This document shows, in pieces, positions 14,929-46,300 of a stretch of DNA of 64,000 bases; positions within the stretch are counted from its first letter, which is position 1; the number at the start of each line of letters is the position of its first letter. Source of the stretch: Oscillospiraceae bacterium (GTDB lineage: Bacteria > Bacillota > Clostridia > Oscillospirales > Acutalibacteraceae); assembly GCA_031270605.1 (NCBI GenBank), contig JAISXG010000070.1, forward strand, positions 10,482-74,481, read 5' to 3'. Both the position numbers and the translations under genes were made by a program. The notes beneath the pieces are model-generated. The model was not told the origin of the DNA. It was given only the letters and a program-made list of their open reading frames with translations, and did not search any database.

Positions 14929-14944
14929 AGCATCATCCTGATAT

Positions 14945-15648: not shown

Positions 15649-15661
15649 TGAGGTGATATTA

Positions 15662-27776: not shown

Positions 27777-28214
27777 ATGAAAATATCTTCGAAAGGGCGC
27801 TACGCCCTTCGCATGATGATTGACATTGCGCAGCATAACACCGGCGAATGGATCACCATCAAGGACATTTCAGAGCGTCAGGGGATCTCGGTGAAATACC
27901 TTGAGCAAATCGTGACAAACCTCACCAAAACCGGCCTGCTGCTCAGCAGCCGCGGCTCGCAGGGCGGCTATATGCTGGCGCGGGCACCGGAAAAATACAC
28001 TGCCGGCCAGATTCTTCGGGTGATTGAAGGCAATCTCGCGCCGGTGGCCTGCCTGGAAAGCAACCCCAACGTGTGCGAGCGTGTGAACGCCTGCCCTACG
28101 GTTCATTTTTGGGGGGGGCTCCATAAGGTGATCAACGAATATGTGGACTCTGTCACACTGCAGGACCTTGTGAACGAATCCAGCCAGAATCTGGGATACG
28201 ATTTCAGCATCTGA
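27777..28214 (+). CDS. Rrf2-family transcriptional regulator with a three-Cys Fe-S-type motif (IscR/CymR-like)
   Basis: 145 aa. SKGRYALRMM N-terminus and C-x6-C-x5-C (CLESNPNVCERVNAC). Confidence 0.85.
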   Translation: MKISSKGRYALRMMIDIAQHNTGEWITIKDISERQGISVKYLEQIVTNLTKTGLLLSSRGSQGGYMLARAPEKYTAGQILRVIEGNLAPVACLESNPNVCERVNACPTVHFWGGLHKVINEYVDSVTLQDLVNESSQNLGYDFSI

Positions 28215-28261: not shown

Positions 28262-28327
28262 TAATCCTGCCCAACCGTTCAGGAAAAACCCGCACTATAT
28301 ATGCAGAACGCTTCCGGAGGCTTTCAA

Positions 28328-29962
28328 ATGATCAAAGAAACGGCAGACAAGTGCATTTTGAGCTATCAAAAAAAGATTTTCGGCTTTGCCCTTGCCAAAA
28401 TGAGAAACATCGCCCAGGCAGAAGAGCTTGCGGCGGACATTGCCTGCGAGGTTTATGTTTCCTTTCTGCAGCAGGATGAGATTTTGAACCTTGACGGCTA
28501 TGTCTACCGCATTGCACAGAATGTTTTCGCAAAGCACATCCGCAGGCAAAATACAACCGCCAACATGAGCCTTTTTGAATGTCCGCTGCCCTGTTTTGAC
28601 GACACCCAGCAAAAACTGGAACAGAACGAAGCGGTGAAAAGGCTGCGCGCAGAAATTGCGCTTCTCTCCCGGCGGCAGCGGTCGGTCGTGTTTTTGCATT
28701 ATTATGAAAACAAAACCACAGCCGAAATCGCAAAGCTGCTGCAAGTCTCACCCGGCACGGTCAAATGGCACCTGTCTGACGCAAGAGAACGGTTAAAGGA
28801 TGGTTTGACGATGAATAACACAACACAAAACCTTGCGGTGAACCCCATCAAATTTATTTCCATGGGTCACAACGGCTCACCCGGCATAAACGGAGACACA
28901 GCAAGCATTTTCGACACCCGCCTCAAGCAAAACATTGCCTACTGCTGTTATTATAACGCCATGACAGTAGAAGAAATCGCCCGCACCCTTTCGCTGCCCG
29001 CCGTCTTTGTCGCGGATGAGCTCAAGGTCTTGGAGGAATACGCCTACCTCGACCGAACCGACAACAGCCGCCGGCCAAAGTTCCGCACAAACATGCTTCT
29101 CACAGATTTGAGAGCAGAGCCCGAACCGGGGCTGACAGAAGCAGACAAACTGCACAAAGCGGCGGCCAAAACACTTTGCGACGTGTTTTATCCGAAAGTG
29201 TTCGACGATTTTGATGCGTCTGCAAACAACTGGGGCCTTTTTTGCGGCGATGGTCAAAACGACAAGAATTATATGAAATATTCCCTCGTCATGCTCTGCA
29301 CGCGGTTTTTATTTGACACGGACGGCTGCAATTGGTGGCGCCAATATGCTGTCAAGCGGCCGGACGGCGGGCAGTTCATCGCGCACGCCTGTGTGGTCGA
29401 TGACTGCACGCAAAACGGGGATATCCGTTCGCCTTATTGGGTTTGCGGTTATATGCACAGAACCGAGCAGAACCGGTTCGCAAGCCTGCAGCTTGACTGC
29501 CACTTCGCAAGCCGCGAGGGGCGATGGATTGACAATCTCAATGCGGACTGGGCAGCACTCTATCGCTTCTTGAAACAAGATGATAAAAAACAAGCGCTGC
29601 CGGCGGAGGATTACAAGCGTCTTTGCGACAAAGGCTATCTGCTGGATGAGCAGGTTCAGGTTGTGACCTGCAAAACCAAAAAGCGAAACAAGCTTGACTG
29701 GCTGCACGAGCTGATAAACAAAAACATTCATGTCCCCCAAAGCATTTTCGCGCTGGGCAAAGAGCTGGACGCAAACAGGTTCCGGCTTGAAAAAGATCGG
29801 CACCCTCCCCACATGCGGCCGCTTGTCAGGCACTATAACAGCGACTCTCTTTCGTCGAGTGCAATGGTGCCTCATGTGGTAGAGGCCATGCTGGAACGCG
29901 GCATGCTGCAGCCGCTGACAGAACGGCAAAAAAAATCAGTCTTCACGATTATGGTTTATTGA
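28328..29962 (+). CDS. ECF-type sigma-70 family factor fused to a ~380-aa soluble C-terminal extension
   Basis: Regions 2 and 4 are recognisable (ELAADIACEVYVSF; TTAEIAKLLQVSPGTVKWHLSDARERLK). A long Cys/Trp-rich tail follows, with no hydrophobic segment. The ATG at 28328 sits 7 nt after GGAGG. Confidence 0.75.
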   Translation: MIKETADKCILSYQKKIFGFALAKMRNIAQAEELAADIACEVYVSFLQQDEILNLDGYVYRIAQNVFAKHIRRQNTTANMSLFECPLPCFDDTQQKLEQNEAVKRLRAEIALLSRRQRSVVFLHYYENKTTAEIAKLLQVSPGTVKWHLSDARERLKDGLTMNNTTQNLAVNPIKFISMGHNGSPGINGDTASIFDTRLKQNIAYCCYYNAMTVEEIARTLSLPAVFVADELKVLEEYAYLDRTDNSRRPKFRTNMLLTDLRAEPEPGLTEADKLHKAAAKTLCDVFYPKVFDDFDASANNWGLFCGDGQNDKNYMKYSLVMLCTRFLFDTDGCNWWRQYAVKRPDGGQFIAHACVVDDCTQNGDIRSPYWVCGYMHRTEQNRFASLQLDCHFASREGRWIDNLNADWAALYRFLKQDDKKQALPAEDYKRLCDKGYLLDEQVQVVTCKTKKRNKLDWLHELINKNIHVPQSIFALGKELDANRFRLEKDRHPPHMRPLVRHYNSDSLSSSAMVPHVVEAMLERGMLQPLTERQKKSVFTIMVY

Positions 29963-29977
29963 ATGCTTTAAAGCAAC

Positions 29978-30013
29978 AAAAAAGGAGCGAGCCCTCATGC
30001 CCACTCCTTTTTT
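29978..30013. terminator. Bidirectional terminator between the sigma gene and the JAMM gene
   Basis: aaaaaaggag...ctcctttttt, with A/T runs on both sides. Confidence 0.65.
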
Positions 30014-30079
30014 GTCATATAATCACTTTTTTGAATAACGCCTGTCTAATGAATTCGGTAATCACCCAAATAAAGGCAA

Positions 30080-30493
30080 TTAAAACTCCAGTTCAATCGC
30101 AATACCGCGCACCTTGCCGCCCTCAATGCGAAAGGCCCGCAAACAAGGCTCCTCAAGCGCCAAAGACAAAATGAGATAAAGCGCTTTTGGGTCCTGTGCC
30201 AGGCGGATGTCCTCATCAGAGGGGCGGGCCGGGGTCTCAGGGTGGGAATGAAAATTGCCGAGGGGTGCAATGCCCTTCGCACGCATATCCTTCACCGCCG
30301 CAAGCTGCTCGCGCGGGTCAATCGAAAAATGCTCGCTGCTGTGGTCAATATTTGTCAGCGGATATACTTGCTCAATATAAAATTCATCCGCCTCCGCCCG
30401 GCCCGCAATCAATCCGCAGGCCTCTTCGGGCAGAGCCGATTTTGCATGGTCAACGATTTTATTAAAATCATCATAGTTCAGGTGAATTCTCAT
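30080..30493 (-). CDS. JAMM/MPN+ metalloprotease (HcyD / Mec+ / QbsD-like)
   Basis: 137 aa. E..CG early motif and HSHPETPARPSDED (HxHx7Sx2D JAMM motif). Confidence 0.85.
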   Translation of the reverse strand: MRIHLNYDDFNKIVDHAKSALPEEACGLIAGRAEADEFYIEQVYPLTNIDHSSEHFSIDPREQLAAVKDMRAKGIAPLGNFHSHPETPARPSDEDIRLAQDPKALYLILSLALEEPCLRAFRIEGGKVRGIAIELEF

Positions 30494-31313
30494 GGCTCTC
30501 CCCCTCCGCTTTCAAGTCGCACGCGGGCACTTCATAATCAAACGGCTCGGTGATGGAAGGGTGCTCGCCGCAGACCGCGCAGTCTTTTCTTCCGGGCAAC
30601 TTGATGCGGCGAAACTCCATTGTGAGCGCGTCATAGGTCAGCAGCTTGCCTGTGAGCAGGTCGCCTTTGCCGATGAGGAACTTAATCGCCTCCATCGCCT
30701 GCAAGGACCCGATTACACCGCCCATAGCGCCCACAACCCCGGCCTGACGGCAGGTGGGGATCGCGTCCGGTGGCGGCGGCTCACGAAACACGCAGCGATA
30801 GCAGGGGCCTTCCCCCGGCACATAGGTCATCAGCTGGCCACCGAAGCGCAGAATGCCCGCGTGTGAAAAAGGCTTTTTCTGCAACACACACGCATCGTTA
30901 ATCAAAAACTTTGCGGCAAAATTATCTGTGCCGTCAATGATGAAGTCATAGTCTTGGATTAAGTCCATGATGCTCGCGGCATTTACATAAATTTGATAAG
31001 TATTCACCTGCACGTCCGGGTTAATCGCCTGCATCGTTTCTTTCGCGGACTGCACCTTTGCTTTGCCGATGTCCGCCGTGGTGTGAATCACCTGGCGCTG
31101 CAAATTGGAAAGGTCAACCGTATCAAGGTCCGCAATGCCGATGGCGCCCACGCCCGCTGCGGCAAGATAGAGCGCGATCGGCGCCCCGAGGCCGCCCGCG
31201 CCGATAATCAACACCTTGCCGTTGAGGAGCTTTTTCTGCCCCTTTGCGCCAACCTCTTTTAACAGGATGTGGCGGGAATAACGCTCCAGCTGTTCATTTG
31301 TGAAGGCCATCAA
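30471..31313 (-). CDS. ThiF/MoeB/HesA-family E1-like adenylyltransferase (HcyF-like)
   Basis: 280 aa. GAGGLGAP nucleotide loop and paired CxxC zinc motifs (CYRC, CAVC). Confidence 0.85.
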   Translation of the reverse strand: MMAFTNEQLERYSRHILLKEVGAKGQKKLLNGKVLIIGAGGLGAPIALYLAAAGVGAIGIADLDTVDLSNLQRQVIHTTADIGKAKVQSAKETMQAINPDVQVNTYQIYVNAASIMDLIQDYDFIIDGTDNFAAKFLINDACVLQKKPFSHAGILRFGGQLMTYVPGEGPCYRCVFREPPPPDAIPTCRQAGVVGAMGGVIGSLQAMEAIKFLIGKGDLLTGKLLTYDALTMEFRRIKLPGRKDCAVCGEHPSITEPFDYEVPACDLKAEGESHENSPEL

Positions 31314-31516
31314 GCGCCGCCCCCCATAAAGTATAAAAATTCAATGTTGTCACCGTCCTTGAGAACGGTGTCGGCAAACGCGCCGCTTTCCACAAAGTCG
31401 TCATTGAGTGAAACCGTCACATACTGGGGGGAGTCGATGTTCTCTTTTTCAATGAGCGCCGCAAGCGTTGTACCCTCCGCGTATTCTTTTTTATCTCCTG
31501 CAACAATAATTGTCAT
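31310..31516 (-). CDS. ThiS/MoaD-family sulfur carrier protein ending ...MGGGA (HcyS-like, Gly-Gly plus one Ala)
   Basis: 68 aa with a beta-grasp-sized sequence. 4-nt overlap with the E1 gene. Confidence 0.8.
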   Translation of the reverse strand: MTIIVAGDKKEYAEGTTLAALIEKENIDSPQYVTVSLNDDFVESGAFADTVLKDGDNIEFLYFMGGGA

Positions 31517-31553
31517 GGTGATTCCTCCAATTGTTTGGGCGTTCGTATTATTC

Positions 31554-31811
31554 TTATTCGTCGTCCACTTTTTTCACGAGCAGGGTGTATGTGCCATCGT
31601 CATTGTGGAGCAGCTTTAAAATCTGGTGGCCCTCCTCTTTTACACTGCGGGGCACATTCTGCACCGGCTCACCGTCATTGAGGCGCACGGCAAGAATTTG
31701 CCCGTCGTCCAGTTCATCCAAAGCAACCTTGGTTTTCACAAAGGTCACAGGGCACACAACGTCTGTGATGTCAAGATTCTCGTCTATTTTAATGTCCATA
31801 ATAAAATTCAC
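31554..31811 (-). CDS. TusA/SirA-family sulfurtransferase
   Basis: 85 aa. LDITDVVCP conserved Cys context. Collinear with E. coli TusA. Confidence 0.7.
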   Translation of the reverse strand: MNFIMDIKIDENLDITDVVCPVTFVKTKVALDELDDGQILAVRLNDGEPVQNVPRSVKEEGHQILKLLHNDDGTYTLLVKKVDDE

Positions 31812-32658
31812 TCATCTCTTTCTGAAACACATCCCAGCCCACACGCTCAATCGCCACGCGGAAACGCTCGCTGGGGTTTGCGTGCCGGTCAAAGAAATCA
31901 AGCGCGGCATCGGCCGCTTTAAAAACCTGCTCTTTGTCTTGCATAATGGGGAACAGCTGCTCGCCAAAGGCAATTTTGTTGCCGAAGGTGCCGCCGAACG
32001 AAAGAATATAACCCGGCTCACCCTTCCACGCGTCAAACGGGCAGGACTTCACACAGCGGCCGCAGTTATTGCACTTGTCTTCTTCAATCACAATTTTTTT
32101 ATCCTCTTCTGTGAGCGCCCCCTCACGGCAGGCCTTGATGCAAATACCGCACAGGGTGCAGGCCTCGGGAATCCATTCAATAAGATAACCGCCCTTTACG
32201 CCAAGGTCGTTTTCCTCGGCTTTCAGGCAGTTGTTCATACATCCCGTCACACCAAACTTGAACTTATGAGGCAATTCACGGCCGAAATAGCGTTCTGACA
32301 GCTCAACCGCAAGCGGGTAGGTGTCAATGCAGCCGGAGGGACAGACCTCGCTGCCCTGGCAGGCCGTGACGGTACGCACACGCGGGCCACACACGCCGGT
32401 GAAAACCTCTCCCTCCAAAAGCTTTTCTTTGACCGAGTCAATATCTTTGAGCTTGATGAAAGGAATTTCAACCCCCTGACGGGAGGTCAGATGCACATGA
32501 CCGGCACCATATTCTTTCGCAACCTCTGCAATGGTGATGATCTGCTCCGCCGTGAGGTTGCCCCCCACAACTTTCAAGCGCAGGGAAAAATGATTTTTTT
32601 GCTTTTGGCGCATAAATCCGCCGTTTTTCAGCGCTTTATAATCAACAGCCATGCTCAT
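31789..32658 (-). CDS. Small sulfite reductase-like protein (nitrite/sulfite reductase siroheme-[4Fe-4S] domain with an inserted 2x[4Fe-4S] ferredoxin)
   Basis: 289 aa. Cys clusters TACQGSEVCPSGC, GCMNNC, CTLCGICIKAC and CNNCGRCVKSCP. Confidence 0.75.
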   Translation of the reverse strand: MSMAVDYKALKNGGFMRQKQKNHFSLRLKVVGGNLTAEQIITIAEVAKEYGAGHVHLTSRQGVEIPFIKLKDIDSVKEKLLEGEVFTGVCGPRVRTVTACQGSEVCPSGCIDTYPLAVELSERYFGRELPHKFKFGVTGCMNNCLKAEENDLGVKGGYLIEWIPEACTLCGICIKACREGALTEEDKKIVIEEDKCNNCGRCVKSCPFDAWKGEPGYILSFGGTFGNKIAFGEQLFPIMQDKEQVFKAADAALDFFDRHANPSERFRVAIERVGWDVFQKEMSEFYYGH

Positions 32659-33893
32659 TCTCCTTTCATGCTCTCAATCGCCTGACCGAAATCTTCAATT
32701 AAGTCTTCAATATCCTCAATGCCCACACTCACGCGGATCATATCGTCATAAACCCCTGCGTCACTCTTTTTCTCTTCACTGGAATGCAGATAAATCGTGG
32801 ACGCCGGGTGGATTACCAAGGTGCGCACATCGCCGATGTTCGTGGCGATTTTGGGAATTTTCAATGCGTTCACAAGCCGGAATGCCCGCTCCTTTGAGCC
32901 TGCGCGCAGCGTTAAAATCGCACCGCCCTGCCCCTTTTCCATTTGAGAATCCACAAAGCCTTTATAAGGGCTGCTAGCAAGGCCGGGGTAGCTCACACCC
33001 GCAAGCTCACTTTGCGTTTCCAAAAATTCCGCCAAAGCGAGGGCGTTTGCACACAGCCGCTCCATGCGCAGGCCGAGCGTTTCCAGCCCCAAACAGTTCA
33101 AATATGCGTTCTGCGGCGCAATGCAGGGGCCGAAGTTGCGCCAAAGGTCACCCCGCAAGCGTGCGGTATAAGCAAATTTGCCCATTTTCTGATAACCTGC
33201 CAAAGCGGAAAAGCGTTCAAAATCCCACGCAAATTTGCCGCCGTCAACAATGATGCCGCTGAGTGCGTCGCCACTGCCGTTGATGTATTTTGAAGAGGAA
33301 TGCACCACAATGTCCGCACCGTGGGCAAGGGGGAGAATCAGCGCCGCCGTGGCCGTGGTGCTGTCAATCACCAACGGGATTTTATGTTGCTTCGCCAGTG
33401 TGGAAACCTCCGCAAGGTCAACCACGTCAAGGCGGGGATTGCCGAAGAGTTCAGCAAAAATCACCTTGGTGCACCCGTTAATCTGGGGTGCGATTTCCGC
33501 CGCCGTCATGTTTTTCACAAACCGTGTTTTGATGCCGAACCTTTCAAAGTCGGCCAGCAGGTCAAGCGTGCCGCCGAACAGCGCGCTTGAAGAAATGATT
33601 TCGTCTCCGCTCTCAAGAATGTTCAGCAAGGCCATGGAAACGGCCGCCATGCCCGAAGCACAGGCAACGGCGTCAACGCCCCCCTCAAGCGTGGCAATGC
33701 GCTTTTCAAACGCCATCACCGTGGGGTTTGAAATGCGTGTGTAAGCAAAGCCGGGAGCCTTGCCGGCAAAGACCTTTTCCAGCTGTTCGGCACTCTCATG
33801 CGCGAACGCGGAGGTCTGATAAACGGCGGGGAGGGTTGCGCCGGTGGTGTCAAAGGGATTTGTGCCTTGCAAAAGACGTGTGTTAAACCGCAT
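32655..33893 (-). CDS. metY: O-acetylhomoserine sulfhydrylase / aminocarboxypropyltransferase (PLP)
   Basis: 412 aa. Cys/Met-metabolism PLP family, with SSSKYINGSG as the PLP lysine context. Confidence 0.85.
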   Translation of the reverse strand: MRFNTRLLQGTNPFDTTGATLPAVYQTSAFAHESAEQLEKVFAGKAPGFAYTRISNPTVMAFEKRIATLEGGVDAVACASGMAAVSMALLNILESGDEIISSSALFGGTLDLLADFERFGIKTRFVKNMTAAEIAPQINGCTKVIFAELFGNPRLDVVDLAEVSTLAKQHKIPLVIDSTTATAALILPLAHGADIVVHSSSKYINGSGDALSGIIVDGGKFAWDFERFSALAGYQKMGKFAYTARLRGDLWRNFGPCIAPQNAYLNCLGLETLGLRMERLCANALALAEFLETQSELAGVSYPGLASSPYKGFVDSQMEKGQGGAILTLRAGSKERAFRLVNALKIPKIATNIGDVRTLVIHPASTIYLHSSEEKKSDAGVYDDMIRVSVGIEDIEDLIEDFGQAIESMKGE

Positions 33894-33925
33894 CGCGCTT
33901 CATCCTTTTCTTTAATCAATTTTTC

Positions 33926-33969
33926 TACGGCTGCGGCGCTTAAATCAATGGGAGCGCCGTGTAGCCGTA
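33926..33969 (-). other. Interrupted 14-bp hairpin at the ABC-ATPase/metY junction
   Basis: tacggct-g-cggcgct ... agcgccg-tgt-agccgta spans the ATPase stop codon. There is no T run on the - strand. Confidence 0.3.
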
Positions 33970-34695
33970 TTTATTTTTCTTTAAAGCAATACCGAAGACT
34001 TTGTCAACGGCGCCACTCTGTGCAATCTCCCGCGGCGCACCGCAGCATTGCAGCTTTCCGTCAGCCAGCAGCAGCGCATAGTCACTCCGTTCCAACGCAA
34101 GCGGAAGGTCGTGCAGCACCATCACCACGGTTTTCCCCCCGTCCGCAAGGGTGCGCAAGAGCGCCATCAATTCATATTGCACGCGGATGTCAAGATAAGC
34201 CGTGGGCTCGTCAAGCAAAATCAACGGTGTGTCCTGCGCCACAGTCATAGCAAGGCAGGCTCTTTGCCGCTGCCCGCCCGAAAGCGAAGTCAGGCGGCGG
34301 TGGGAAAACTCCCACGCACCTGTCAGGCGCAGGGCATTTTCAATGATGTCCCTGTCTTTTTGTGAAAGCACATGCCGCCGCGACAAATGGGGGTAGCGGC
34401 CGTGTGCGGCAAGGTCAAACACCGTGATGTCCGGCACCGTGCGCCACTGGGGAAAAAAGGAGATACGCTTTGCCCGCTCTTTGGGCGGCAAAACTCCAAG
34501 GTCGTGCCCCGAAACCGCTATGCTGCCCGCAGTGGGGCGAAGCAGTCCCGCGGCCAGACGTAGCAGCGTGCTCTTTCCGCAGGCGTTCGGGCCGATGAGG
34601 CAAGTGATTTTTTCGCCGGGAATCGAAAAGCTCAGCTTCTCTAAGACCGGCGTTTTTTTATCATATGTAAACGACATATCAGAAAACTCAAGCAT
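33940..34695 (-). CDS. ABC transporter ATP-binding protein (FecE/BtuD/FhuC class)
   Basis: Walker A GPNACGKST, signature LSGGQRQR, Walker B LILLDEP. The ATG at 34695 sits 7 nt after GAGAGGA. Confidence 0.85.
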   Translation of the reverse strand: MLEFSDMSFTYDKKTPVLEKLSFSIPGEKITCLIGPNACGKSTLLRLAAGLLRPTAGSIAVSGHDLGVLPPKERAKRISFFPQWRTVPDITVFDLAAHGRYPHLSRRHVLSQKDRDIIENALRLTGAWEFSHRRLTSLSGGQRQRACLAMTVAQDTPLILLDEPTAYLDIRVQYELMALLRTLADGGKTVVMVLHDLPLALERSDYALLLADGKLQCCGAPREIAQSGAVDKVFGIALKKNKYGYTALPLI

Positions 34696-34727
34696 AATAA
34701 AATCCTCTCGCTCGGATGAAAAACTCT

Positions 34728-35729
34728 TCAAGCCTTCTTTTTCCGCAGCAGCAGGTAAAGGAAGAACGGTCCACCTAAAAAGGAAAGTAAAATCCCCGCG
34801 GGAAGTTCATACGGGGCGAAAATCATGCGGCTCAACAAATCGCAAAACGTCACCAAAACCGCGCCCAGCAAAGCACAGACGGGCAACAAGCGGCGGTGGC
34901 CCGCCGCCGGGCAAAGCCTTCGCGCAAGGTGCGGCGTCATCAGCCCGACAAACCCGAGAAGACCGCAAACACTGACCGAAGCGCCGGCCAAAACAGAGGA
35001 AACAGTCAAAATCACGCCCCGGGCAAGGGGCACGCGCATGCCCAGAGAGGCCGCGGTTTCATCGCCCAACACAAACACATCCAGTTCCCCCGCAAACAGT
35101 GTTGCCGCCGCAAGACCCGCCGCGACATAATACACAGCAGGCATTAAGGCACTCCAAGTGATACCCGAAAAGCCGCCAATCATAAAACTGCGGTAACCGG
35201 CAAGAGATTCCGGGTAAAAGGTGTGCACCGCGTCAATTCCGGCAGACAAGATGCTGCCGATTGCCACACCCGCAAGCAAAATCGTGCCCCGGCGCGAGCC
35301 GGTGCGCGCGCTCACGGCAAAAATCAAAAGCGAAGCCAAAACAGCGCCGCCGAAAGCAAACGCAGGCGTCCAGCCGCTTGCGAGCGAAAGAAACGCGCCG
35401 CACAATGCCACGGCAAGCCCGGCGCCCGAATTGATGCCGAGCAGCGTGGGGCTGGCAAGGGGGTTACTGAGCAAAGTTTGCACCATCAGACCGCTCACCG
35501 CAAGAGACGCGCCACAAACCACATTTGCGGCAATGCGAGGCATGCGGATAAGCCAGAGAATCTGACTCTGCGTGTTCTGCTCACGCGGATGCAGCAGGGC
35601 GTTTATGAACTCAGAAAAAGAGAGATTCGCAGCACCTGCCGCCAAAGAAACCAATATAATAACAAACAGTAAAACAAGCAGTAAAAAAGGGAACCAGTTA
35701 CGGATACAGGATCGCCGCAAGCTTTTCAT
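34728..35729 (-). CDS. FecCD-family ABC permease (iron-chelate / cobalamin type)
   Basis: Polytopic membrane protein with FecCD layout. The probable ATG at 35729 follows a GGGGTGA RBS; the track ORF starts at a TTG inside the upstream gene. Confidence 0.8.
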   Translation of the reverse strand: MKSLRRSCIRNWFPFLLLVLLFVIILVSLAAGAANLSFSEFINALLHPREQNTQSQILWLIRMPRIAANVVCGASLAVSGLMVQTLLSNPLASPTLLGINSGAGLAVALCGAFLSLASGWTPAFAFGGAVLASLLIFAVSARTGSRRGTILLAGVAIGSILSAGIDAVHTFYPESLAGYRSFMIGGFSGITWSALMPAVYYVAAGLAAATLFAGELDVFVLGDETAASLGMRVPLARGVILTVSSVLAGASVSVCGLLGFVGLMTPHLARRLCPAAGHRRLLPVCALLGAVLVTFCDLLSRMIFAPYELPAGILLSFLGGPFFLYLLLRKKKA

Positions 35730-36639
35730 AGCTTTCACCCCACCGATCGTTGGGTTTGTAGTGATAGAGCTCCCGCTCAAGCACAAACCATTTGCCGTTT
35801 TTCACAGCGCTCAAACTCTTCCATGCGGGCTGCGTTGCAATCATCTGCTCAAACGCTGTCTTGACCTCTTTATCTTGCATGCCCAATGCCGTCACAAAAA
35901 TATATTCGGGGTCCGCCTGCAGAATGATTTCAAGAGAAAGCTCTTCCAAAAGCGAAGGGTAGTCGTCCGCAATATTTTTTGCGCCCAAGTCACGCAGCAC
36001 TTCAACTGCCACCGTGCCCTTATTCTTCACACCCGCACCGTTGGAAGTGAACCGCAGCTGCAAAACTGTCGGCCCTGTTTTTCCTTCGGCACGCGCAAGC
36101 GCTCCGGCAATTTTCGCTTTGGGCGTTGTAATTAACTGTTCCTGCAAATCCTCCCGGCCGGTGAGGCGCAAAAAGAGTTCGGCAATCATTTTATAATCAT
36201 CAAATGTGTCGCAGGTGAAATAGGCGGCGGGGATTTTCATCGCCGAAAGCCCCTCTTTGAGCGCAAGCTGCCCCGCAATGTCCGCCGAAAGAATCACAAG
36301 GTCGGGGTTCAGCGAAGCGATTTTCTCAAGGCTCGGCTCTTTTGACGCTCCCACCAGCACCGCGTCGCCCACATCGAGCTGCCGCTCACCCGCCGCGTCG
36401 TCCGTCACACCCACAAGCGTTCCGCCCGCGGAAAGCCAGATGTCAGAATAAGAAGCATACACACAAACCACCCGCTGGGGGGCATCTGCAAGGGTAATGC
36501 GCGTTCCTTCGGTGTCCGTAAACGAATACTCTATATTCTTCTCAGTGGCAGAAGTCACGTCAACCTGCGTTGCGGGCCGGCAGGCCGACAACAGGAAAAG
36601 AATCAAAACAAATATACAAATAAATATCGTTTTTTTCAT
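35698..36639 (-). CDS. ABC substrate-binding lipoprotein (FecB/BtuF periplasmic-binding-protein class)
   Basis: 313 aa. Lipobox LLSAC after a hydrophobic signal peptide. Confidence 0.8.
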   Translation of the reverse strand: MKKTIFICIFVLILFLLSACRPATQVDVTSATEKNIEYSFTDTEGTRITLADAPQRVVCVYASYSDIWLSAGGTLVGVTDDAAGERQLDVGDAVLVGASKEPSLEKIASLNPDLVILSADIAGQLALKEGLSAMKIPAAYFTCDTFDDYKMIAELFLRLTGREDLQEQLITTPKAKIAGALARAEGKTGPTVLQLRFTSNGAGVKNKGTVAVEVLRDLGAKNIADDYPSLLEELSLEIILQADPEYIFVTALGMQDKEVKTAFEQMIATQPAWKSLSAVKNGKWFVLERELYHYKPNDRWGESYEKLAAILYP

Positions 36640-36685
36640 AAAAACACCATTAAACCGTCAATCCTATATATTTAATATGATTTAA

Positions 36686-36714
36686 AGTATAGTATTTTTC
36701 CTATTACCTGTCAA
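36686..36714 (-). promoter_or_regulatory. Candidate sigma-A promoter of the ABC-metY-sir-carrier operon
   Basis: On the - strand: TTGACA, 17-nt spacer, TATACT. The leader would be only about 40 nt, leaving no room for a riboswitch. Confidence 0.5.
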
Positions 36715-36785
36715 CGATTTTATAAAATTCAGCAATGTATCCATAAAAAAGTTGCATTTGGTTAATAGTTTATATGGTTTCTACA

Positions 36786-36814
36786 TTGACTTTTCCATGC
36801 CCTCCCTGTATCAT
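36786..36814 (+). promoter_or_regulatory. Candidate sigma-A promoter of the SPL-hydrolase-MFS unit
   Basis: TTGACT, 17-nt spacer, TATCAT. Confidence 0.5.
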
Positions 36815-36855
36815 ACTATTCATATATAACATATAATTTTAGTATGAATAGTATG
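36812..36855. promoter_or_regulatory. 13-bp perfect inverted repeat overlapping the -10 element and early leader (operator candidate)
   Basis: catactattcata-N18-tatgaatagtatg. Confidence 0.45.
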
Positions 36856-36871
36856 TTTAAGGGGTGACAAG

Positions 36872-38230
36872 ATGGATTTTCCACAAAAAGGCCTTTCCAA
36901 AGAAGAGATTTTCCAAGCGCTGGACGATTATCAACAGAATGACGGCAACTATAAAAAGGGTAAAACCTGGAGCCTTGTTTATTATGCAGGCGAAGAGATT
37001 ACCCGTTTAACAGAAGAGGTTTATTGCAAGTTCTTTCACACAAACGCATTAAACCCCTTCGTTTTTCAGAGCCTTAAACGTCTTGAAACAGAAACTCTCG
37101 CAATGGCGGCGGATTTGTTTCACGGTGACGAACAGGTGGTCGGCACCCTCACCTCCGGCGGTAGCGAGAGCATTCTGATGGCGGTCAAGACCTACCGCGA
37201 TGAAGCGCGTGAGAAAAAGCCCCACATCACGCAGCCTGAAATGATCGCTCCCATCAGCGTTCACGCCGCTTTTGAAAAGGCCGCGCACTACTTCGGCGTC
37301 AAAATCATTCACGCTCCTCTTATGGATGATTTTCGTGTGGATGTCGCCGCGGTGGAAAAACTCATTACCCCCAACACTATTTTATTAATTGGTTCCGCAC
37401 CCCAGTACCCGCAAGGGGTTGTCGACCCCATTGAGGCACTTTCAGCTCTCGCATTAAAACATGATTTGCGGCTGCATGTGGATGCCTGCCTCGGCGGATT
37501 TACAATACCTTTTATAAAAGAGCTTGGCGGCGATATCCCCGCCTTTGACTTTGCGCTGCCCGGTGTGACCTCCATTTCGGCGGATCTACATAAATACGGC
37601 TTTGCGGCCAAGGGTGTTTCAGCGCTGCTCTACCGCAACGCGGGCATCCGGCAATATCAATATTTCGCATACGGCGACTGGCCGGGCGGACTCTTTATCT
37701 CCCCCAGCGCAACGGGCACTCGCCCCGGCGGCGCAATCGCCTCCGCGTGGGCGGCACTGAAATATATCGGCCGTGAAGGCTATCTTGAAATCACCAAAAG
37801 TGTTCTTGAAACCACAAAAAAAATTACGGACGGCGTGAAATCGATTCCCGAGCTATCTATTCTGGGCAATCCTCCCGCTGGAATTTTTGCTTTTGATTCC
37901 AAAACCCTCAATGTGCACGCGCTGGCGGATGTGCTGGAACACAAGGGCTGGATTATTGACCAGCAGGTCAATCCCTCCTGCTTGCACTTCATGGTCACGC
38001 CTGCTCATGCGGGCATTGCGGATGATTTTGTGCAGGATTTGAAAGAGAGTGTTGAAGAGCTTAAAGCGAACCCCGGCAACTATGCCGGCGGCAGCGCTGC
38101 ACTCTACGGCATGAGCGTCACGATTCCCGACCGGGGGCTTGTGAACTCGCTGATCAAAGGCGCATACAGCCGGTTCATGACCGAGGGCGGCACTTTCTCA
38201 TTTGAAGATTTGGGCAACATATTAGATTAA
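36872..38230 (+). CDS. Sphingosine-1-phosphate-lyase-family PLP enzyme (group II decarboxylase fold), soluble form
   Basis: 452 aa. Collinear with eukaryotic SGPL1: SGGSESILMAVKTYRD, HVDACLGGF and the PLP-Lys motif SADLHKYGFAAKG. No N-terminal TM helix. Confidence 0.75.
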   Translation: MDFPQKGLSKEEIFQALDDYQQNDGNYKKGKTWSLVYYAGEEITRLTEEVYCKFFHTNALNPFVFQSLKRLETETLAMAADLFHGDEQVVGTLTSGGSESILMAVKTYRDEAREKKPHITQPEMIAPISVHAAFEKAAHYFGVKIIHAPLMDDFRVDVAAVEKLITPNTILLIGSAPQYPQGVVDPIEALSALALKHDLRLHVDACLGGFTIPFIKELGGDIPAFDFALPGVTSISADLHKYGFAAKGVSALLYRNAGIRQYQYFAYGDWPGGLFISPSATGTRPGGAIASAWAALKYIGREGYLEITKSVLETTKKITDGVKSIPELSILGNPPAGIFAFDSKTLNVHALADVLEHKGWIIDQQVNPSCLHFMVTPAHAGIADDFVQDLKESVEELKANPGNYAGGSAALYGMSVTIPDRGLVNSLIKGAYSRFMTEGGTFSFEDLGNILD

Positions 38231-38247: not shown

Positions 38248-39951
38248 ATGATGTCACAAACTGCAACAAAAAAAACCGCGCTGGCACAAACACCGATTGC
38301 AATTATTGAAGAAACAACGAACTCGCTGCCCCGCGCGGCGTCGCCTGAAGAGGTTGGTATTTCTTCTCAGGCTATTTTGAATCTGCTGGATGAATATGAC
38401 AAGCAGGGGTATGAATATCATGGTCTCATGATTCTTCGCCACGGCAAGGTCGCATTTGAAACCTACCGCGCACCCTACGCAAAAGAGATTCCACACTCCA
38501 TCTATTCTTTTTCAAAGAGTGTGGCGGCCACATCCATCGGCTTTGCGGTGGAAGAAGGCTTGCTCTCCCTCCATGACCCGGTGGGCAAATTTTTCCCCGA
38601 ATACCGCCCCAAAAAAAACGCCGAGCGGTGGGACAAAATCACCATCTGGCATGTGCTCACAATGACAACGGGCTTTGCTTTTAACGTGTTTCATCAAAAC
38701 TCCAACCCCGACTGGGTAAAAGATTATTTACACTCCCATTTGCGTGACGAACCCGGTTCTGTGTTTCATTACACAAACGAAAACGCTTATCTTATTAGCG
38801 TCCTGATTCGACGCATTAGCGGGCAGACGCTGTTTGAATATTTGAAACCCCGCCTGTTTGACCCTCTGGGTATTGATGTGCCCTATTCAGAGGTTGACGG
38901 CGCAGGCAACCAGGGCGGCGGCTGGGGAATCATCTGGAAGCTTGAGGACTCCGCGAAATTCATCCAGTGCTACCTCAACAACGGCAAATGGAACGGCAAA
39001 CAGATCATCCCCGAATGGTGGGCAGTCGAAGCCACCAAAACGCAGGTATCGAACGCCGACAATATTAAGGCCGATTCTAAAGTGGGCTACGGCTATCAGT
39101 TCTGGATGTGCTCGCTCCCCAACACCTTTGCCTGCCGCGGCATGTTCTGCCAGCAGGGCGTGGGTATGCGCGACCATGACGCGGTGTTTGTATATGTGGG
39201 CGCCGAGGCAGACGAACAAAAGCCCTATGACGTGATTTATCCCCACTTCCCGGCAGGATTCTTGGATGAATCCGAAAAACATGAGGCTGACGAAACGGTG
39301 CTCAAAGAGCTGAAAAGCCGTGCGGAAAATCTCACCTTCCCCGCCCCTCCGGTTTCAAAACGTATTTCTGTCCTTGAAGAAAAGTGTAATAACAATGTTC
39401 TCCGTTTGCGCAAACACCTGTTTTTGAACACGATCGGCTTCCCTTTAAGCCTTTTGCCCATGACTGTCAACCAAATGGCGCTGGACCGCGCGGGCCATAT
39501 TGACAATGTCTATCTTGATTTCAAAGAAAATGAAGTATTCTTCACCTGGCAGGAAGGCAAAAAAGCGCAGTGGATTAACACCATTCCCCTCGGGCTTGAC
39601 GGCAAGTATCGCGAGGGCCGCATTAACCTTTCCGGCTTTGAACTTGACACTTACTCCTATGCCAACTGGGAGGATGACAAAACATTACTTTTAAACATCC
39701 GTCCCATCCAAACCTGCTGCAGCCGCACATTGCGAGTTGAATTCAAATCACACGACCGTGTAAAAATAATTCCCCGCTCGACACCTAGTTTCAAAAGCGT
39801 GGCGGATAATTTATACCACCTCTCCCATGCCTTTCTCAACAACAGCAAGCCGCTGTGCGCTCTTTCAAAATTCCTCTTTTCAATCGCCCCGGCGGTGATG
39901 GAGGCGAATTTTCATGGCAAACTCAAAAGCAGAAAGCAGTTTAAAAGGTAG
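38248..39951 (+). CDS. Beta-lactamase-fold serine hydrolase (family S12-like amidase/esterase), cytoplasmic
   Basis: 567 aa. SxxK (YSFSKS) and YxN (HYTNEN) motifs, no signal peptide, and a ~200-aa C-terminal extra domain. Confidence 0.75.
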   Translation: MMSQTATKKTALAQTPIAIIEETTNSLPRAASPEEVGISSQAILNLLDEYDKQGYEYHGLMILRHGKVAFETYRAPYAKEIPHSIYSFSKSVAATSIGFAVEEGLLSLHDPVGKFFPEYRPKKNAERWDKITIWHVLTMTTGFAFNVFHQNSNPDWVKDYLHSHLRDEPGSVFHYTNENAYLISVLIRRISGQTLFEYLKPRLFDPLGIDVPYSEVDGAGNQGGGWGIIWKLEDSAKFIQCYLNNGKWNGKQIIPEWWAVEATKTQVSNADNIKADSKVGYGYQFWMCSLPNTFACRGMFCQQGVGMRDHDAVFVYVGAEADEQKPYDVIYPHFPAGFLDESEKHEADETVLKELKSRAENLTFPAPPVSKRISVLEEKCNNNVLRLRKHLFLNTIGFPLSLLPMTVNQMALDRAGHIDNVYLDFKENEVFFTWQEGKKAQWINTIPLGLDGKYREGRINLSGFELDTYSYANWEDDKTLLLNIRPIQTCCSRTLRVEFKSHDRVKIIPRSTPSFKSVADNLYHLSHAFLNNSKPLCALSKFLFSIAPAVMEANFHGKLKSRKQFKR

Positions 39952-42814: not shown

Positions 42815-42850
42815 CTGGTATTGCATCCGAAAGAAAGGAACGAACAATTT

Positions 42851-45319
42851 ATGGCAACTGTTATATATTCATCTCAGGAGCAGCGCCTGCAAAAAGAATC
42901 CAACAGCGGCGCCACAGGCTCGCGCGTGTCCGCCCTGCTTGAGCAGGTCCGCGCCGCCCGACCCGCCATCGACATAGAACGAGGCAAATATTTCACCGAA
43001 TCCTTCAAACAGACCGAAGGAGAAAAATTAATTCTGCGCTGGGCAAAAGCCTTATATCATTACGCGGCAAACGCTTCGGTTTATATTGACGACGGGCAGT
43101 TAATTGCGGGACGCATCGGCAAGGGCATCCGCTACGGCGTGCTTTACCCGGAGCTTGACGGCGACATTTTGGGCGAGGCCATCGCCTCCATCGCCTCCCG
43201 CGACACCTCCCCTTTTGACATCAGCGAAAAGGACAAGGGCATCATCCAAAACGACATCGCCCCCTACTGGAAGGGCAAAACCTTTCATGAGGCGCTCGCA
43301 AAGGCGATTCCCGCCGATACAAAGCCGCTCACATACAATAACGACGAAGAGTTCACCTCCCGTTTTGTCGTAAACGAAACCGCCTCTTTCCGTTCCTCCA
43401 TTCAATGGGTGCATGACTATGAAAAACCCCTGAAAATCGGATTTTTGGGCATTCGCGCCGAAGCGAAACAGGCCCTCTTTGCGCTTGACGAATTCAATCC
43501 GGTACATAATAACGAGAACAAGCCCTTTCTGCAGGCAATCATCCTTATGGCGGACGCGATCATTCTTTGGGCCCGCCGCCACGCGGAACTTGCCCGAAAA
43601 AAAGCCGCGGCCGAAACAAACCAAACGCGCAAGGCAGAGCTTTTGGAGCTTGCTGAAATCTGCGAAAGAGTGCCCGCCCACCCGGCGCGCACCTTCCATG
43701 AAGCCGTGCAGAGCCAATGGTTCATCCAGCTCTTCTCCCGCGTGGAGCAAAAAACAGGCACCATCATTTCAAACGGCAGAATGGATCAATATCTTTATCC
43801 CTATTATAAAGCCGACCTTGAGAGCGGCGCAATTACCCCCAATAAAGCACAGGAGCTGCTGGAATGCGTGTGGGTTTCCATGGCGCAATATGTCGACCTC
43901 TATCTCTCAAAAGCGGGCGGCGCGTTCAACGAAGGCTATGCCCATTGGGAGGCGGTCACCGTCGGCGGCCAGACGCCGGACGGGCAGGACGCAACCAATG
44001 ATTTGACCTACCTCATTTTAAAATCCAAGCGCGACTTTCCCCTCAACTATCCCGACCTCGCGGCGCGCATCCACATGCGTTCCCCCAGGCGTTATCTCTA
44101 TGACGTGGCGCAAACCGTCAAAGACGGCTCGGGCTTCCCCAAACTGATCAACGACGAGGAAGTCGTGCCCCTGCTGCTCGCGAAGGGCGCGCGGTTTGAC
44201 GAGGCCTATGACTACGCCGTTTCAGGCTGCGCGGAAGTCAGAATGCCCAATAAAGACACCTTCACCTCCCCCTGCGCCTATGTCAACTTTGCCGCGGCGC
44301 TCGAACTGGCTCTTTATAACGGCAAAATGCTGAAATACGGGGATGAACAGCTCGGATTGCAGACAGGTGAGCTGGAAGATTTTCAAGACTTTAATTCTTT
44401 CCTGCAAGCGTATCTTGCGCAGCAGAAACATTTGCTCAAGCATGCGTTCATTCAGCAATATCACGTGAACAAGCTGCGTGAGCATCATTTCGCCGCCCCG
44501 CTCTCCTCCGCGCTCAATGCGGTGTCCGTTGCGGCGCAAAGGGATATTCACACCGAATTCATCCCCGGCGGCATTGACCTTGGATATTATGAGTGCATCG
44601 GCTACGCCACGGTCATCGACTCCCTCGCGGCAATCAAAAAACTGGTGTTTGAAGAGAAAACCGTCACCGCCACCCAGCTCAAACAGGCCCTTGAAACCAA
44701 TTTTGAGAACGATGAGCTGCTGCGTCAGCGTCTGCTGCGCACCCCGGCCTACGGCAACGATGACCCCTATGCGGACGACTTCGGCAAGCTCATTGACAAA
44801 GAAGCCATCGCATTCACCGAAGGATATTGCAAAACGCTCGGTGTGCGGCTTGATTTGCGTTATGTGCCCTTCACCTCAAACGTGCCCTTCGGAAAGGTGA
44901 TTTCCGCGACGCCCAACGGCCGCTTTGCGTGGGCGCCCCTCTCCGACGGCTCGTCAGCCTCACAGGGTTCCGACAAAAAGGGCCCTGCGGCGATTCTTCT
45001 TTCAAATTTTCACACAAAGAACTATGACCGCAGCCACCGCGCCGCGCGCCTGCTAAATATCAAGTTCACCCCCGGCAGCATCGCGGGCAAAGAAGGCACA
45101 CAGCAGCTTGTGAATTTTATTGAGGGCTGGCGCGACCTGAAACTTTGGCACATCCAGTTCAACGTCATCAATCAGGAAACATTGCTAGCAGCCAAAAAGA
45201 ACCCCGAGCAATACCGTAACCTGCTTGTGCGCATTGCGGGATACAGCGCCTATTTCTGCGAGCTCTCGTCCGATTTACAGGATGATTTGATTTCACGTAC
45301 GGCGCACGGTGCAATCTAA
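42851..45319 (+). CDS. Glycyl radical enzyme of the Cys-x-Glu (eliminase/lyase) type, possibly a sulfonate C-S lyase
   Basis: C-terminal glycyl radical motif VRIAGYSAYF and thiyl loop VSGCAEV. NGRMDQYLYPYY and TFHEAVQSQWF are conserved GRE motifs. An ATG at 42851 or a TTG at 42821 could be the start. Confidence 0.85.
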   Translation: MATVIYSSQEQRLQKESNSGATGSRVSALLEQVRAARPAIDIERGKYFTESFKQTEGEKLILRWAKALYHYAANASVYIDDGQLIAGRIGKGIRYGVLYPELDGDILGEAIASIASRDTSPFDISEKDKGIIQNDIAPYWKGKTFHEALAKAIPADTKPLTYNNDEEFTSRFVVNETASFRSSIQWVHDYEKPLKIGFLGIRAEAKQALFALDEFNPVHNNENKPFLQAIILMADAIILWARRHAELARKKAAAETNQTRKAELLELAEICERVPAHPARTFHEAVQSQWFIQLFSRVEQKTGTIISNGRMDQYLYPYYKADLESGAITPNKAQELLECVWVSMAQYVDLYLSKAGGAFNEGYAHWEAVTVGGQTPDGQDATNDLTYLILKSKRDFPLNYPDLAARIHMRSPRRYLYDVAQTVKDGSGFPKLINDEEVVPLLLAKGARFDEAYDYAVSGCAEVRMPNKDTFTSPCAYVNFAAALELALYNGKMLKYGDEQLGLQTGELEDFQDFNSFLQAYLAQQKHLLKHAFIQQYHVNKLREHHFAAPLSSALNAVSVAAQRDIHTEFIPGGIDLGYYECIGYATVIDSLAAIKKLVFEEKTVTATQLKQALETNFENDELLRQRLLRTPAYGNDDPYADDFGKLIDKEAIAFTEGYCKTLGVRLDLRYVPFTSNVPFGKVISATPNGRFAWAPLSDGSSASQGSDKKGPAAILLSNFHTKNYDRSHRAARLLNIKFTPGSIAGKEGTQQLVNFIEGWRDLKLWHIQFNVINQETLLAAKKNPEQYRNLLVRIAGYSAYFCELSSDLQDDLISRTAHGAI

Positions 45320-45451
45320 TACGAATCCCTCATAAAAAGCTTGCTAAAAAATCCGCACAAAACCACATAAATCAAAGCTTTTGGTTGATTTTTTAGAGCT
45401 TTTTTAATCGGGAGTTCGTATCAATCTATTGAACAGTTCAGGGAGCGCAGC

Positions 45452-46300
45452 ATGACAGACCATGAAAAAACAGGCTATATTTTTAATATCCAGCACTTTT
45501 CTCTGCACGACGGCCCGGGCATCCGCACCAATGTGTTTCTCAAGGGTTGCCCTCTGCGTTGCCGCTGGTGCTGCAACCCCGAATCCCACGCGCTGCTGCC
45601 CGAGGCGGCGTTTGACAAGTCAAAATGCATTCTCTGCGGCGCCTGCTCTTTGGGCGCGAAAGAACCTGCAGTGCGCTTTGAACACGGTGAAAAGGTGATT
45701 GACAGGACGGCCCTGCATGCCAATGGCGAACGCCTTGCGCTGGTGTGCCCCACGGGCGCGATCAGCCTTTACGGCGAGCAGAAAAGCGTGGGAGAAATTC
45801 TTGACGAGGCCGAGCGTGACGCCGCGTTTTATTCCCGCGGCGGGGGCGGCATCACACTCAGCGGCGGCGAGCCTCTGTTTCAGGCAGAGTTCGCAACGGC
45901 AATTCTCCGTGAAGCAAAGCGGCGGCACATCCGCACCGCAATCGAAACCTGCGGACATGTGCCGTGGGAAACCCTGCGTGAGGCGGCTGAGCATCTTGAT
46001 TATGTGCTTTATGACATCAAAAGCCTGAATTCGGTAAGCCATAAAGAGCAGACGGGCGTGGGCAATGAGCAAATTCTTGAAAATTTCCGCCTGCTGTGCG
46101 AGCACTTCCCCGCCCTGCCGAAGCTGGTGCGCACACCTGTGATTCCCGAATTCAACGAACATGAGGCCCTCGAAATCAAGGCATTTGCCGAGAGTTTCCC
46201 GAACGTGACTTTTCAGGCGCTGTCCTATCATACCTTTGGCGTGAAAAAATACGCGATGCTCGGCAAAACCTATACAGGGTATATTAAAAATACAAATTAA
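45452..46300 (+). CDS. Glycyl-radical-enzyme activating enzyme (radical SAM)
   Basis: 282 aa. CPLRCRWCCNPE CX3CX2C motif plus a ferredoxin-like Cys insert (CILCGAC...CPTGA). Confidence 0.9.
   Translation: MTDHEKTGYIFNIQHFSLHDGPGIRTNVFLKGCPLRCRWCCNPESHALLPEAAFDKSKCILCGACSLGAKEPAVRFEHGEKVIDRTALHANGERLALVCPTGAISLYGEQKSVGEILDEAERDAAFYSRGGGGITLSGGEPLFQAEFATAILREAKRRHIRTAIETCGHVPWETLREAAEHLDYVLYDIKSLNSVSHKEQTGVGNEQILENFRLLCEHFPALPKLVRTPVIPEFNEHEALEIKAFAESFPNVTFQALSYHTFGVKKYAMLGKTYTGYIKNTN

Follow-up and report, generated by a model that had tools for sequence, protein, structure and literature searches.

A predicted HcyS-type thiocarboxylate pathway to homocysteine, with TusA as candidate sulfur donor, in a six-gene operon of an Oscillospiraceae bacterium

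A methionine pathway of Wolinella succinogenes reportedly makes homocysteine with a protein thiocarboxylate as the sulfur donor. It is said to have been worked out by Krishnamoorthy and Begley in 2011 and to consist of the sulfur carrier HcyS, the adenylyltransferase (E1) HcyF, the JAMM protease HcyD, the pyridoxal-phosphate (PLP) enzyme MetY and the sulfite reductase Sir. Reportedly, trimming of the carrier by the protease and its adenylation by the E1 are followed by the addition of sulfur to give the thiocarboxylate, which MetY combines with O-acetylhomoserine before the protease frees homocysteine. Here we describe a 64,000-nucleotide stretch of DNA from an Oscillospiraceae bacterium (contig JAISXG010000070.1), hereafter the window, in which six adjacent genes encode a MetY-like enzyme, a small sulfite reductase (Sir), a TusA-family protein, a ThiS-fold carrier, an E1 and a JAMM protease. 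As judged from their sequences, these genes very likely specify an HcyS-type protein-thiocarboxylate route to homocysteine. The explanation that we prefer combines this pathway with a sulfur relay through TusA, and we regard the combination as likely, with most of the weight placed on the pathway.

Clusters of this kind were catalogued by Iyer, Burroughs and Aravind in 2006 as class 4e, a set of "sulfur metabolism" neighbourhoods with a ThiS/MoaD-like carrier, a JAB protease and an E1 that includes Wolinella and, among the low-GC Gram-positives, C. thermocellum, Desulfitobacterium and Alkaliphilus (PMC1779556). SirA is always present in these neighbourhoods and the E1 always lacks a rhodanese domain, and SirA was predicted to act in the role of rhodanese (PMC1779556). 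The MetY of Wolinella uses the carrier thiocarboxylate (PMC8191291), and Price et al. (2018) noted that the pathway is absent from MetaCyc and KEGG.

Relation of the six genes to the Wolinella pathway

Positions 30080-33893 of the window are filled exactly by six intact, co-directional minus-strand open reading frames (ORFs; Table 1). Domains were called by Pfam and NCBIfam profile searches. The profile check proposed in an earlier, sequence-only reading of this DNA placed all six products in the expected Pfam families, and none of the six is truncated in comparison with its homologues (coverage 0.9-1.0). The Wolinella locus used for comparison was reached from the 3RI6 sequence of a PDB alignment, through a 100%-identical protein (P0001), to a Logan contig (L094); a scan of genome contigs with the 3RI6 sequence led no further than a Campylobacteraceae relative (67%) whose 4-kb contig lacks the cluster. 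L094 encodes, in order, a DUF2061 protein, two PAPS_reduct proteins, a GTP_EFTU (CysN-like) protein, ThiS (69 aa), ThiF (272 aa), JAB (130 aa), Sir (764 aa) and a sirohaem synthase, with metY divergent from the remaining cluster genes.

By BLASTP, the window carrier is 43% identical to Wolinella HcyS, the E1 57% identical to HcyF over 276 residues, the JAMM protein 49% identical to HcyD and the MetY-like enzyme 39% identical to the HcyS-dependent MetY. The C-terminus of the carrier, FLYFMGGGA, is identical to the tail of Wolinella HcyS, and its extra Ala masks the Gly-Gly. Orthologous carriers all end in GGG followed by one to eight extra residues, so that a protease is needed. In the JAMM protein the EEACG and HSHPETPARPSDED motifs are intact, and the E...HxH...S..D pattern is visible in the alignment. 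ThiF is the sole family-level domain of the E1 in Pfam, rhodanese being absent; its GAGGLG (GxGxxG) motif, two CxxC zinc pairs, Cys141, Cys187 and Cys264 are invariant in 53 sequences. Cys264 (…EVPACDLK, encoded around 30520-30530) lies in a short tail past the ThiF domain, and its counterpart in Wolinella HcyF is found in …EQPICEV; Cys264 is a possible mobile persulfide acceptor.

The MetY-like enzyme scores 420 bits with TIGR01326, below the cut-off of 495. Its PLP lysine aligns with that of solved MetYs, and an exact-sequence look-up of the protein returned no record. A loop of 10-13 residues in the PDPSYHG... region is absent from this enzyme, from seven other bacterial cluster-linked MetYs, from the MetY of the archaeon Methanoculleus and from the Wolinella HcyS-dependent MetY, whereas it is present in all sulfide-using MetYs aligned, that is, 8SF5, T. 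maritima 7KB0, M. tuberculosis 4KAM and a second Wolinella MetY. The loop-bearing MetYs form one clade in a neighbour-joining tree, with the cluster-linked MetYs outside it. None of 118 close relatives of the Wolinella enzyme has the PDPSYHG motif, a count that applies to the motif as written and not to the loop generally, as the regular expression misses the PDESYHG of the second Wolinella MetY. A 478-aa protein from a Logan assembly (P0037) is a natural fusion in which an HcyS-like carrier (…FLYFMGGG-QSG) lies N-terminal to a short-loop MetY; the carrier would need JAMM cleavage for its release.

Over its whole length, the sulfite reductase aligns to the half of Fsr that carries the sirohaem, and the alignment takes in both cysteine pairs of the sirohaem cluster as well as the inserted ferredoxin domain. 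These pairs (CX5C and CX3C) and the eight cysteines of the ferredoxin domain are invariant in 48 orthologues.

HcyS-type chemistry is the best reading for the window because of the orthology to the Wolinella proteins and the intact motifs. The sequence-only reading had recognised a gene set of the Wolinella HcyS/HcyF/HcyD/MetY/Sir type, and this is borne out by identities of 43-57% for carrier, E1 and protease, the shared carrier tail and the short-loop MetY. Profile models alone would suggest other names. The carrier passes the TIGR01683 thiS cut-off (68.1 versus 37.45 bits), so automated naming will mislead, and the E1 passes the MoeB subfamily model NF004281 (297 versus 266 bits). Both scores favour the view that carrier, E1 and protease are thiamin (ThiS/ThiF) or molybdopterin (MoaD/MoeB) genes that merely lie beside sulfur-assimilation genes. 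We consider this highly improbable, as the neighbourhood contains no thi genes (thiG, thiH and thiC included) and no moaE, the carrier extends past GG by one residue, has a protease as partner and bears the HcyS tail, MetY and Sir are found with it in conserved synteny, and HcyS and MetY can occur as a natural fusion. Slightly more improbable still is a conjugation system of the SAMP/UbaA/desampylase type beside a MetY that uses free sulfide alone. NCBIfam does return matches to UbaA (330 bits) and desampylase (79.6 bits), but both remain under their cut-offs (450 and 130, respectively), and HcyF and HcyD are much nearer relatives of the two proteins; moreover, sulfur assimilation is the only context seen in about 50 loci, and no E2, E3 or target-like genes are present.

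Table 1. Features of the operon and its surroundings in the window.
Feature	Coordinates	Strand	Basis or remark
MetY-like O-acetylhomoserine sulfhydrylase-family PLP enzyme, short-loop, 412 aa	32655..33893	-	PF01053 Cys_Met_Meta_PP 6.7e-109
Small sirohaem sulfite reductase with inserted 2x[4Fe-4S] ferredoxin domain, 289 aa, Fsr-C/AsrC-like	31789..32658	-	NIR_SIR_ferr + NIR_SIR + 2x Fer4
TusA/SirA-family sulfur carrier, 81 aa from ATG	31554..31799	-	PF01206 1.7e-19; alternative GTG start 31811
HcyS-type ThiS-fold sulfur carrier, 68 aa, ends GGG-Ala	31310..31516	-	PF02597 4.9e-13
HcyF-type ThiF/MoeB adenylyltransferase (E1), no rhodanese domain, 279-280 aa	30471..31313	-	PF00899 2.5e-85
HcyD-type JAMM/MPN+ metalloprotease, 137 aa	30080..30493	-	PF14464 Prok-JAB 2.5e-26
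Intrinsic terminator hairpin and U-run, closing the operon, between convergent genes	29978..30016	-	folding energy
FecCD/Peripla_BP_2-type ABC transporter (binding protein, permease, ATPase)	33940..36639	-	PF01497, PF01032, PF00005
Best sigma-70-like promoter match, TTGACA-17-TATACT, upstream of transporter binding-protein gene	36686..36714	-	consensus match only
Rrf2-family (CymR/IscR-like) regulator, candidate operon regulator	27777..28214	+	TIGR00738 132 bits

Distribution of the cluster and the sulfur donor of the carrier

An E1-seeded scan with one genome per species yielded 80 loci, on which the window proteins were mapped. The hosts are mostly Oscillospiraceae, Ruminococcus, Huintestinicola and Lachnospiraceae metagenome-assembled genomes (MAGs). 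The nearest E1 relatives of the window come from Oscillospiraceae MAGs (77-84% identity), in agreement with the placement of the host among the Firmicutes from sequence alone. About 45 of the 80 loci, mostly from Oscillospiraceae, have the order MetY-Sir-TusA-(Trx)-HcyS-E1-JAMM, in which Trx stands for thioredoxin; because the same order recurs in so many independently assembled loci, the arrangement is not a chance juxtaposition. Thioredoxin lies between TusA and the carrier in 29 loci that have MetY-Sir-TusA-Trx-HcyS-E1-JAMM, and about seven further variants also include it. The thioredoxin-less six-gene form of the window is found in four loci (L008, L016, L042 and L050). Several loci, including the closest relative (L003), have Sir-TusA-HcyS-E1-JAMM without MetY. 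Complete sets that have been rearranged occur in Methanoculleus palmolei (L062) and a Saganbacteria MAG (L061), where Sir and TusA are still adjacent.

The gene between TusA and the carrier is a thioredoxin gene; its product scores 96.0 bits with TIGR01068, against a cut-off of 96.8, and across the 37 loci that have it in this position the CxxC is intact in every copy. Some relatives also have a thioredoxin reductase gene after the JAMM gene. Thioredoxin and thioredoxin reductase positions are 7467-7775 in L001, and 10254-10568 and 12090-13022 in L096-L098. Fuller operons around a TusA homologue comprise MetNIQ, a sulfate ABC transporter, MetY-Sir-TusA-Trx-ThiS-ThiF-JAB, thioredoxin reductase (344 bits), AprA (950 bits), an AprB-like gene, CysD, CysN and Rrf2. 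Sulfate-activation genes are found in the relatives L096 and L097, while L098 has neither AprAB nor CysDN and retains thioredoxin, thioredoxin reductase and Rrf2. Sulfate-activation genes are an accessory, not a core, feature of the HcyS-type cluster. Neither sulfate-activation genes nor thioredoxin or thioredoxin reductase genes are present in the 64-kb window, which is a reduced version of the cluster without sulfate activation. The description of the pathway as complete in the sequence-only reading stands in part: the sulfur-transfer module of the operon is complete, but the 64 kb also yielded neither a homoserine acetyltransferase gene nor one for methionine synthase.

The TusA protein has a single cysteine, in the motif CPVTFVKTK, that is invariant in 53 sequences. 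It falls below the equivalog cut-offs of TusA (21 versus 78 bits), YedF (35 versus 79 bits) and TsuB/YeeD (30 versus 147.5 bits), and no tusBCDE, yedE or yeeE gene neighbours it. By its sequence signature, CPxxFVKxK ... NVPRSxKxEGH, it belongs to a distinct and highly conserved subfamily that is reached only by the Pfam TusA family model. At E<=1e-5, the database contains 5,107 clusters of this subfamily, which typically show 80-87% identity; one of them occurs on no fewer than 1,000 contigs from Lachnospiraceae and Oscillospiraceae of the gut. The window TusA is 50% identical by BLASTP to the last 70 residues of Wolinella Sir, which consists of two NIR_SIR repeats and a C-terminal TusA domain (residues 697-763, PF01206 67.8 bits). 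In Butyrivibrio sp. CB08 (L044, 9264-10382), a 372-aa Rhodanese-TusA-DsrE fusion directly follows an HcyS-E1-JAMM trio that has neither Sir nor MetY nearby; the ORF after the fusion encodes 764 aa and has no Pfam hit.

TusA had been taken in the sequence-only reading for an extra component that suggested a persulfide relay. Since the Sir of Wolinella, the one characterised system, carries a TusA domain, TusA is no addition to the described system, and SirA is always present in the neighbourhoods of Iyer et al. (2006; PMC1779556). Given the prediction made there of SirA in the rhodanese role, the persulfide-relay idea is likewise an old one rather than a new inference (PMC1779556). Literature searches on HcyF/HcyD, or on TusA together with thiocarboxylate, brought up no subsequent study of the TusA module.

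We propose that the pathway would run in six steps, of which the first, second, fifth and sixth rest on Wolinella biochemistry, and the third and fourth come from comparative genomics only. (1) The JAMM protease would cut the C-terminal Ala off the 68-aa carrier, thereby exposing Gly-Gly. (2) The rhodanese-less E1 would adenylate the carrier C-terminus with ATP. (3) The small sirohaem Sir would reduce sulfite, and the sulfur would pass as a persulfide on the invariant cysteine of TusA to the activated carrier, TusA taking the role played by the rhodanese domain in MoeZ/MOCS3-type E1s. (4) Thioredoxin, which in the host of the window would come from elsewhere in the genome, would reduce the resulting acyl-persulfide or acyl-disulfide to the carrier thiocarboxylate (carrier-COSH). 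(5) This thiocarboxylate would be the substrate that the short-loop MetY condenses with O-acetylhomoserine. (6) Once an S-to-N acyl shift had taken place, homocysteine would be freed by the JAMM protease and the carrier would be recycled.

For the third step, comparative evidence makes a TusA relay plausible: TusA is constant alongside rhodanese-less E1s, is fused to Sir in Wolinella, stays adjacent to Sir through rearrangement, appears within the L044 fusion and has an invariant cysteine, as the E1 has in its non-zinc Cys187 and Cys264. Reduction of an acyl-persulfide or acyl-disulfide is known for the rhodanese-dependent loading of MoaD, CysO and Urm1-type carriers. The way in which thioredoxin and its reductase track the core genes across loci fits a reduction of this kind.

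Several observations weigh against the pathway or the relay. The window Sir, which is small and Fsr/AsrC-like, is not orthologous to the 764-aa, two-repeat, NirA-like Sir of Wolinella. The window MetY scores 318 bits against the T. maritima MetY and 281 bits against the Wolinella MetY, so that overall alignment score places it about equally near to both and no closer to the Wolinella enzyme than to canonical MetYs. The Saganbacteria locus L061 has a second, loop-bearing MetY beside its carrier gene, and the short loop is therefore not a strict marker. The window lacks the cluster thioredoxin seen in most relatives, and no sulfite source is encoded nearby within the 64 kb. Finally, the Wolinella carrier was reportedly loaded in vitro with free bisulfide, and if this sufficed, TusA is not chemically required.

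This last point leads to the closest alternative, in which the pathway is the same and the carrier is loaded by free sulfide released from Sir. TusA would then be an accessory that scavenges or buffers sulfide, offers protection or feeds another sulfur sink, and thioredoxin would meet other redox needs. Besides the bisulfide loading of HcyS mentioned above and the missing cluster thioredoxin, this view gains from the fact that Fsr-type reductases, the closest solved relatives of Sir, are known as sulfite-to-sulfide enzymes. It does not explain why TusA is always retained, even as a fusion to Sir, with an invariant cysteine, nor why the E1s consistently lack rhodanese. It also sits poorly with the Rhodanese-TusA-DsrE fusion that accompanies the same E1 trio where Sir is absent, and with the thioredoxin and thioredoxin reductase genes, which track the core genes and not the adenylyl-sulfate-reduction genes. 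On this evidence we regard loading by free sulfide as rather unlikely, and we put the chance that the activated carrier physiologically receives its sulfur from TusA at about even.

A more elaborate form of the TusA relay would be a channel without free sulfide. Sir may pass partly reduced sulfur, still bound to its sirohaem, to the cysteine of TusA, in a manner similar to the transfer from DsrAB to DsrC. The TusA persulfide (TusA-SSH), possibly by way of E1 Cys264, would then attack the acyl-adenylate, and thioredoxin with thioredoxin reductase would provide the final two electrons by reducing the carrier-CO-S-S-protein intermediate. We offer this version tentatively and think it doubtful in its full form. 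If it were true, a closed channel of assimilation from sulfite to homocysteine would be common in gut Clostridia.

Transcription unit, regulation and neighbouring features

Four of the five junctions in the six-gene operon overlap when read from the sequence, as had been claimed from the sequence alone for most of the genes. MetY and Sir share an ATGA (4-nt overlap). Sir and TusA overlap by 11 nt with the ATG start of TusA at 31799 or by 23 nt with the GTG start; the ATG is the likelier start, and the resulting 81 aa match the gene-caller and the lengths of relatives. A 37-nt gap holding GGAGG separates TusA from the carrier. The overlap of carrier and E1 is 1 nt if the ATG is the start and 4 nt if the TTG is, and that of E1 and JAMM is 23 nt. 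The strong terminator hairpin after the JAMM stop has a minimum free energy of −27.2 kcal/mol (z-score −7.3), and none of 200 shuffled sequences folded as well.

Upstream of MetY, the transporter ATPase gene lies on the same strand at a distance of 46 nt (33894-33939). No promoter-like or terminator-like site was matched in this gap, and the best promoter match, at 11 of 12 consensus positions the top-ranking site in 29800-37000, lies upstream of the transporter. The short gap, its lack of such matches and the position of the promoter suggest that transporter and operon likely form a single nine-gene transcription unit. The transporter proteins give only generic FecE/FhuB/IsdE-like NCBIfam matches, all below cut-off, and the binding protein is weakly IsdE-, FecB- or BtuF-like. 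A tetrapyrrole (for instance a precursor of sirohaem or of a corrinoid) or iron would be a physiologically sensible ligand, which is a guess. Similar transporters (36-46% identical) adjoin the cluster, in varying position, at six other loci (L009, L024, L038, L039, L041 and L051).

The Rrf2-family gene lies 1.9 kb past the end of the operon, and its product scores 111 bits with the CymR model, below the cut-off of that model. Rrf2 genes lie within the flanks of 24 related cluster loci, which makes the Rrf2 protein a plausible regulator of the operon; in L096-L098 Rrf2 is the last gene of the operon. No operator shared between the operon promoter and the Rrf2 promoter was found, and the regulatory link therefore stays an inference. 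Control by an S-box, a T-box or another riboswitch or leader RNA was considered and rejected: Rfam at gathering thresholds gave no match in the whole 64-kb window, a search at E<=1 of 33800-37000 gave only two chance miRNA matches, on an inverted repeat, and Rfam scans of 10 related loci gave nothing relevant. This repeat (36804-36824 / 36843-36863) has arms of 21 nt that are 86% complementary, an 18-nt spacer and the core CATACTATTCATA / TATGAATAGTATG. It sits between the divergent operon promoter and a decarboxylase gene, just upstream of the start of the latter at 36872, and could be an operator or a 5′-leader hairpin.

The decarboxylase (36872-38230, plus strand) is a MfnA-like PLP enzyme that scores 256 bits with TIGR03812, below cut-off. 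It is followed by a 567-aa beta-lactamase-fold protein (38248-39951, plus strand), whose match to 3-succinylated cholic acid synthase stays, at 200 bits, under the cut-off of 800. The same pair adjoins the sulfur cluster in the closest relative L003 (4179-5549 and 2537-4195). Between the Rrf2 gene and the operon terminator, 28301-29962 (plus strand) encodes a 553-aa protein with an ECF-type sigma-70 domain (regions 2 and 4) at its N-terminus, extended C-terminally by about 380 aa that have no family match. Farther away, an 832-aa ORF and then a 282-aa ORF with a CxxxCxxC-like N-terminus (42821-46300, plus strand) look, by eye from their translations, like a glycyl-radical enzyme and its activase. 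At 14001-16000, the G+C content dips to 0.415, compared with about 0.53 elsewhere, and only short ORFs are present; this segment may be inserted or foreign DNA.

Significance and comparison with known systems

With the cluster type catalogued in 2006, its chemistry described in 2011 and its occurrence common in gut Clostridia, the system as such is already known. Standard annotation nevertheless misses or misnames the pathway, scoring the carrier as ThiS and the E1 as MoeB. Once the pathway is recognised, predictions about methionine auxotrophy and about the use of sulfite or sulfate can be corrected for gut Clostridia that are abundant but uncultured. What the TusA module does is made directly testable by the thioredoxin-containing clusters.

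The Wolinella system shares with the window the FLYFMGGGA carrier, the rhodanese-less E1, the JAMM protease, the short-loop MetY and a sirohaem Sir with a TusA module. It differs in its Sir, a 764-aa NirA-like protein rather than a 289-aa Fsr-C/AsrC-like one with a ferredoxin insert, and in its TusA, which is the C-terminal domain of Sir rather than a separate protein whose gene overlaps that of Sir. MetY is divergent in Wolinella and part of the operon in the window, where a FecCD-type transporter lies upstream. In addition, the Wolinella cluster contains CysD/CysN and PAPS-reductase-type genes, whereas the window has no CysH, CysD, CysN or CysG in cis. Class 4e of Iyer et al. has in common with the window the carrier, the JAB protease, the rhodanese-less E1, SirA/TusA, the sulfite reductase and the O-acetylhomoserine sulfhydrylase; it is a catalogue with a prediction, without the thioredoxin and thioredoxin reductase members or the short-loop MetY noted here.

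Two other carrier systems are related in logic. The CysO/MoeZ(R)/Mec+/CysM system of M. tuberculosis also uses a ThiS-fold thiocarboxylate made by an E1, condensation by a PLP enzyme with an activated amino acid, release by a JAMM protease and a sulfurtransferase module, and MoeZR passes sulfur to CysO in mycobacteria. CysM, however, is of fold type II and makes cysteine, the E1 has its own rhodanese domain, and TusA, Sir and MetY are absent; the window has a PF01053 PLP enzyme of fold type I and an E1 without rhodanese. The Streptomyces MetO/MetM/Mec/MoeZ route, as outlined for Hasebe et al. (2024) in a GapMind 2026 preprint, shares homocysteine synthesis from a carrier thiocarboxylate with a JAMM-type hydrolase and an E1. 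According to the same outline, MetM is threonine-synthase-like and acts on O-phosphohomoserine, in contrast to the Cys_Met_Meta_PP MetY of the window.

Single components also have counterparts elsewhere. The window Sir resembles the C-terminal half of Fsr (PDB 7NP8/7NPA) and AsrC, but it has no FrhB-like F420H2-oxidising half and no AsrA or AsrB. The Rhodanese-TusA-DsrE and IscS-TusA relays share with the window the TusA fold and a single catalytic cysteine in a CP motif; their acceptors are DsrE, TusBCD or tRNA, whereas the acceptor proposed for the window TusA is the acyl-adenylate of the carrier.

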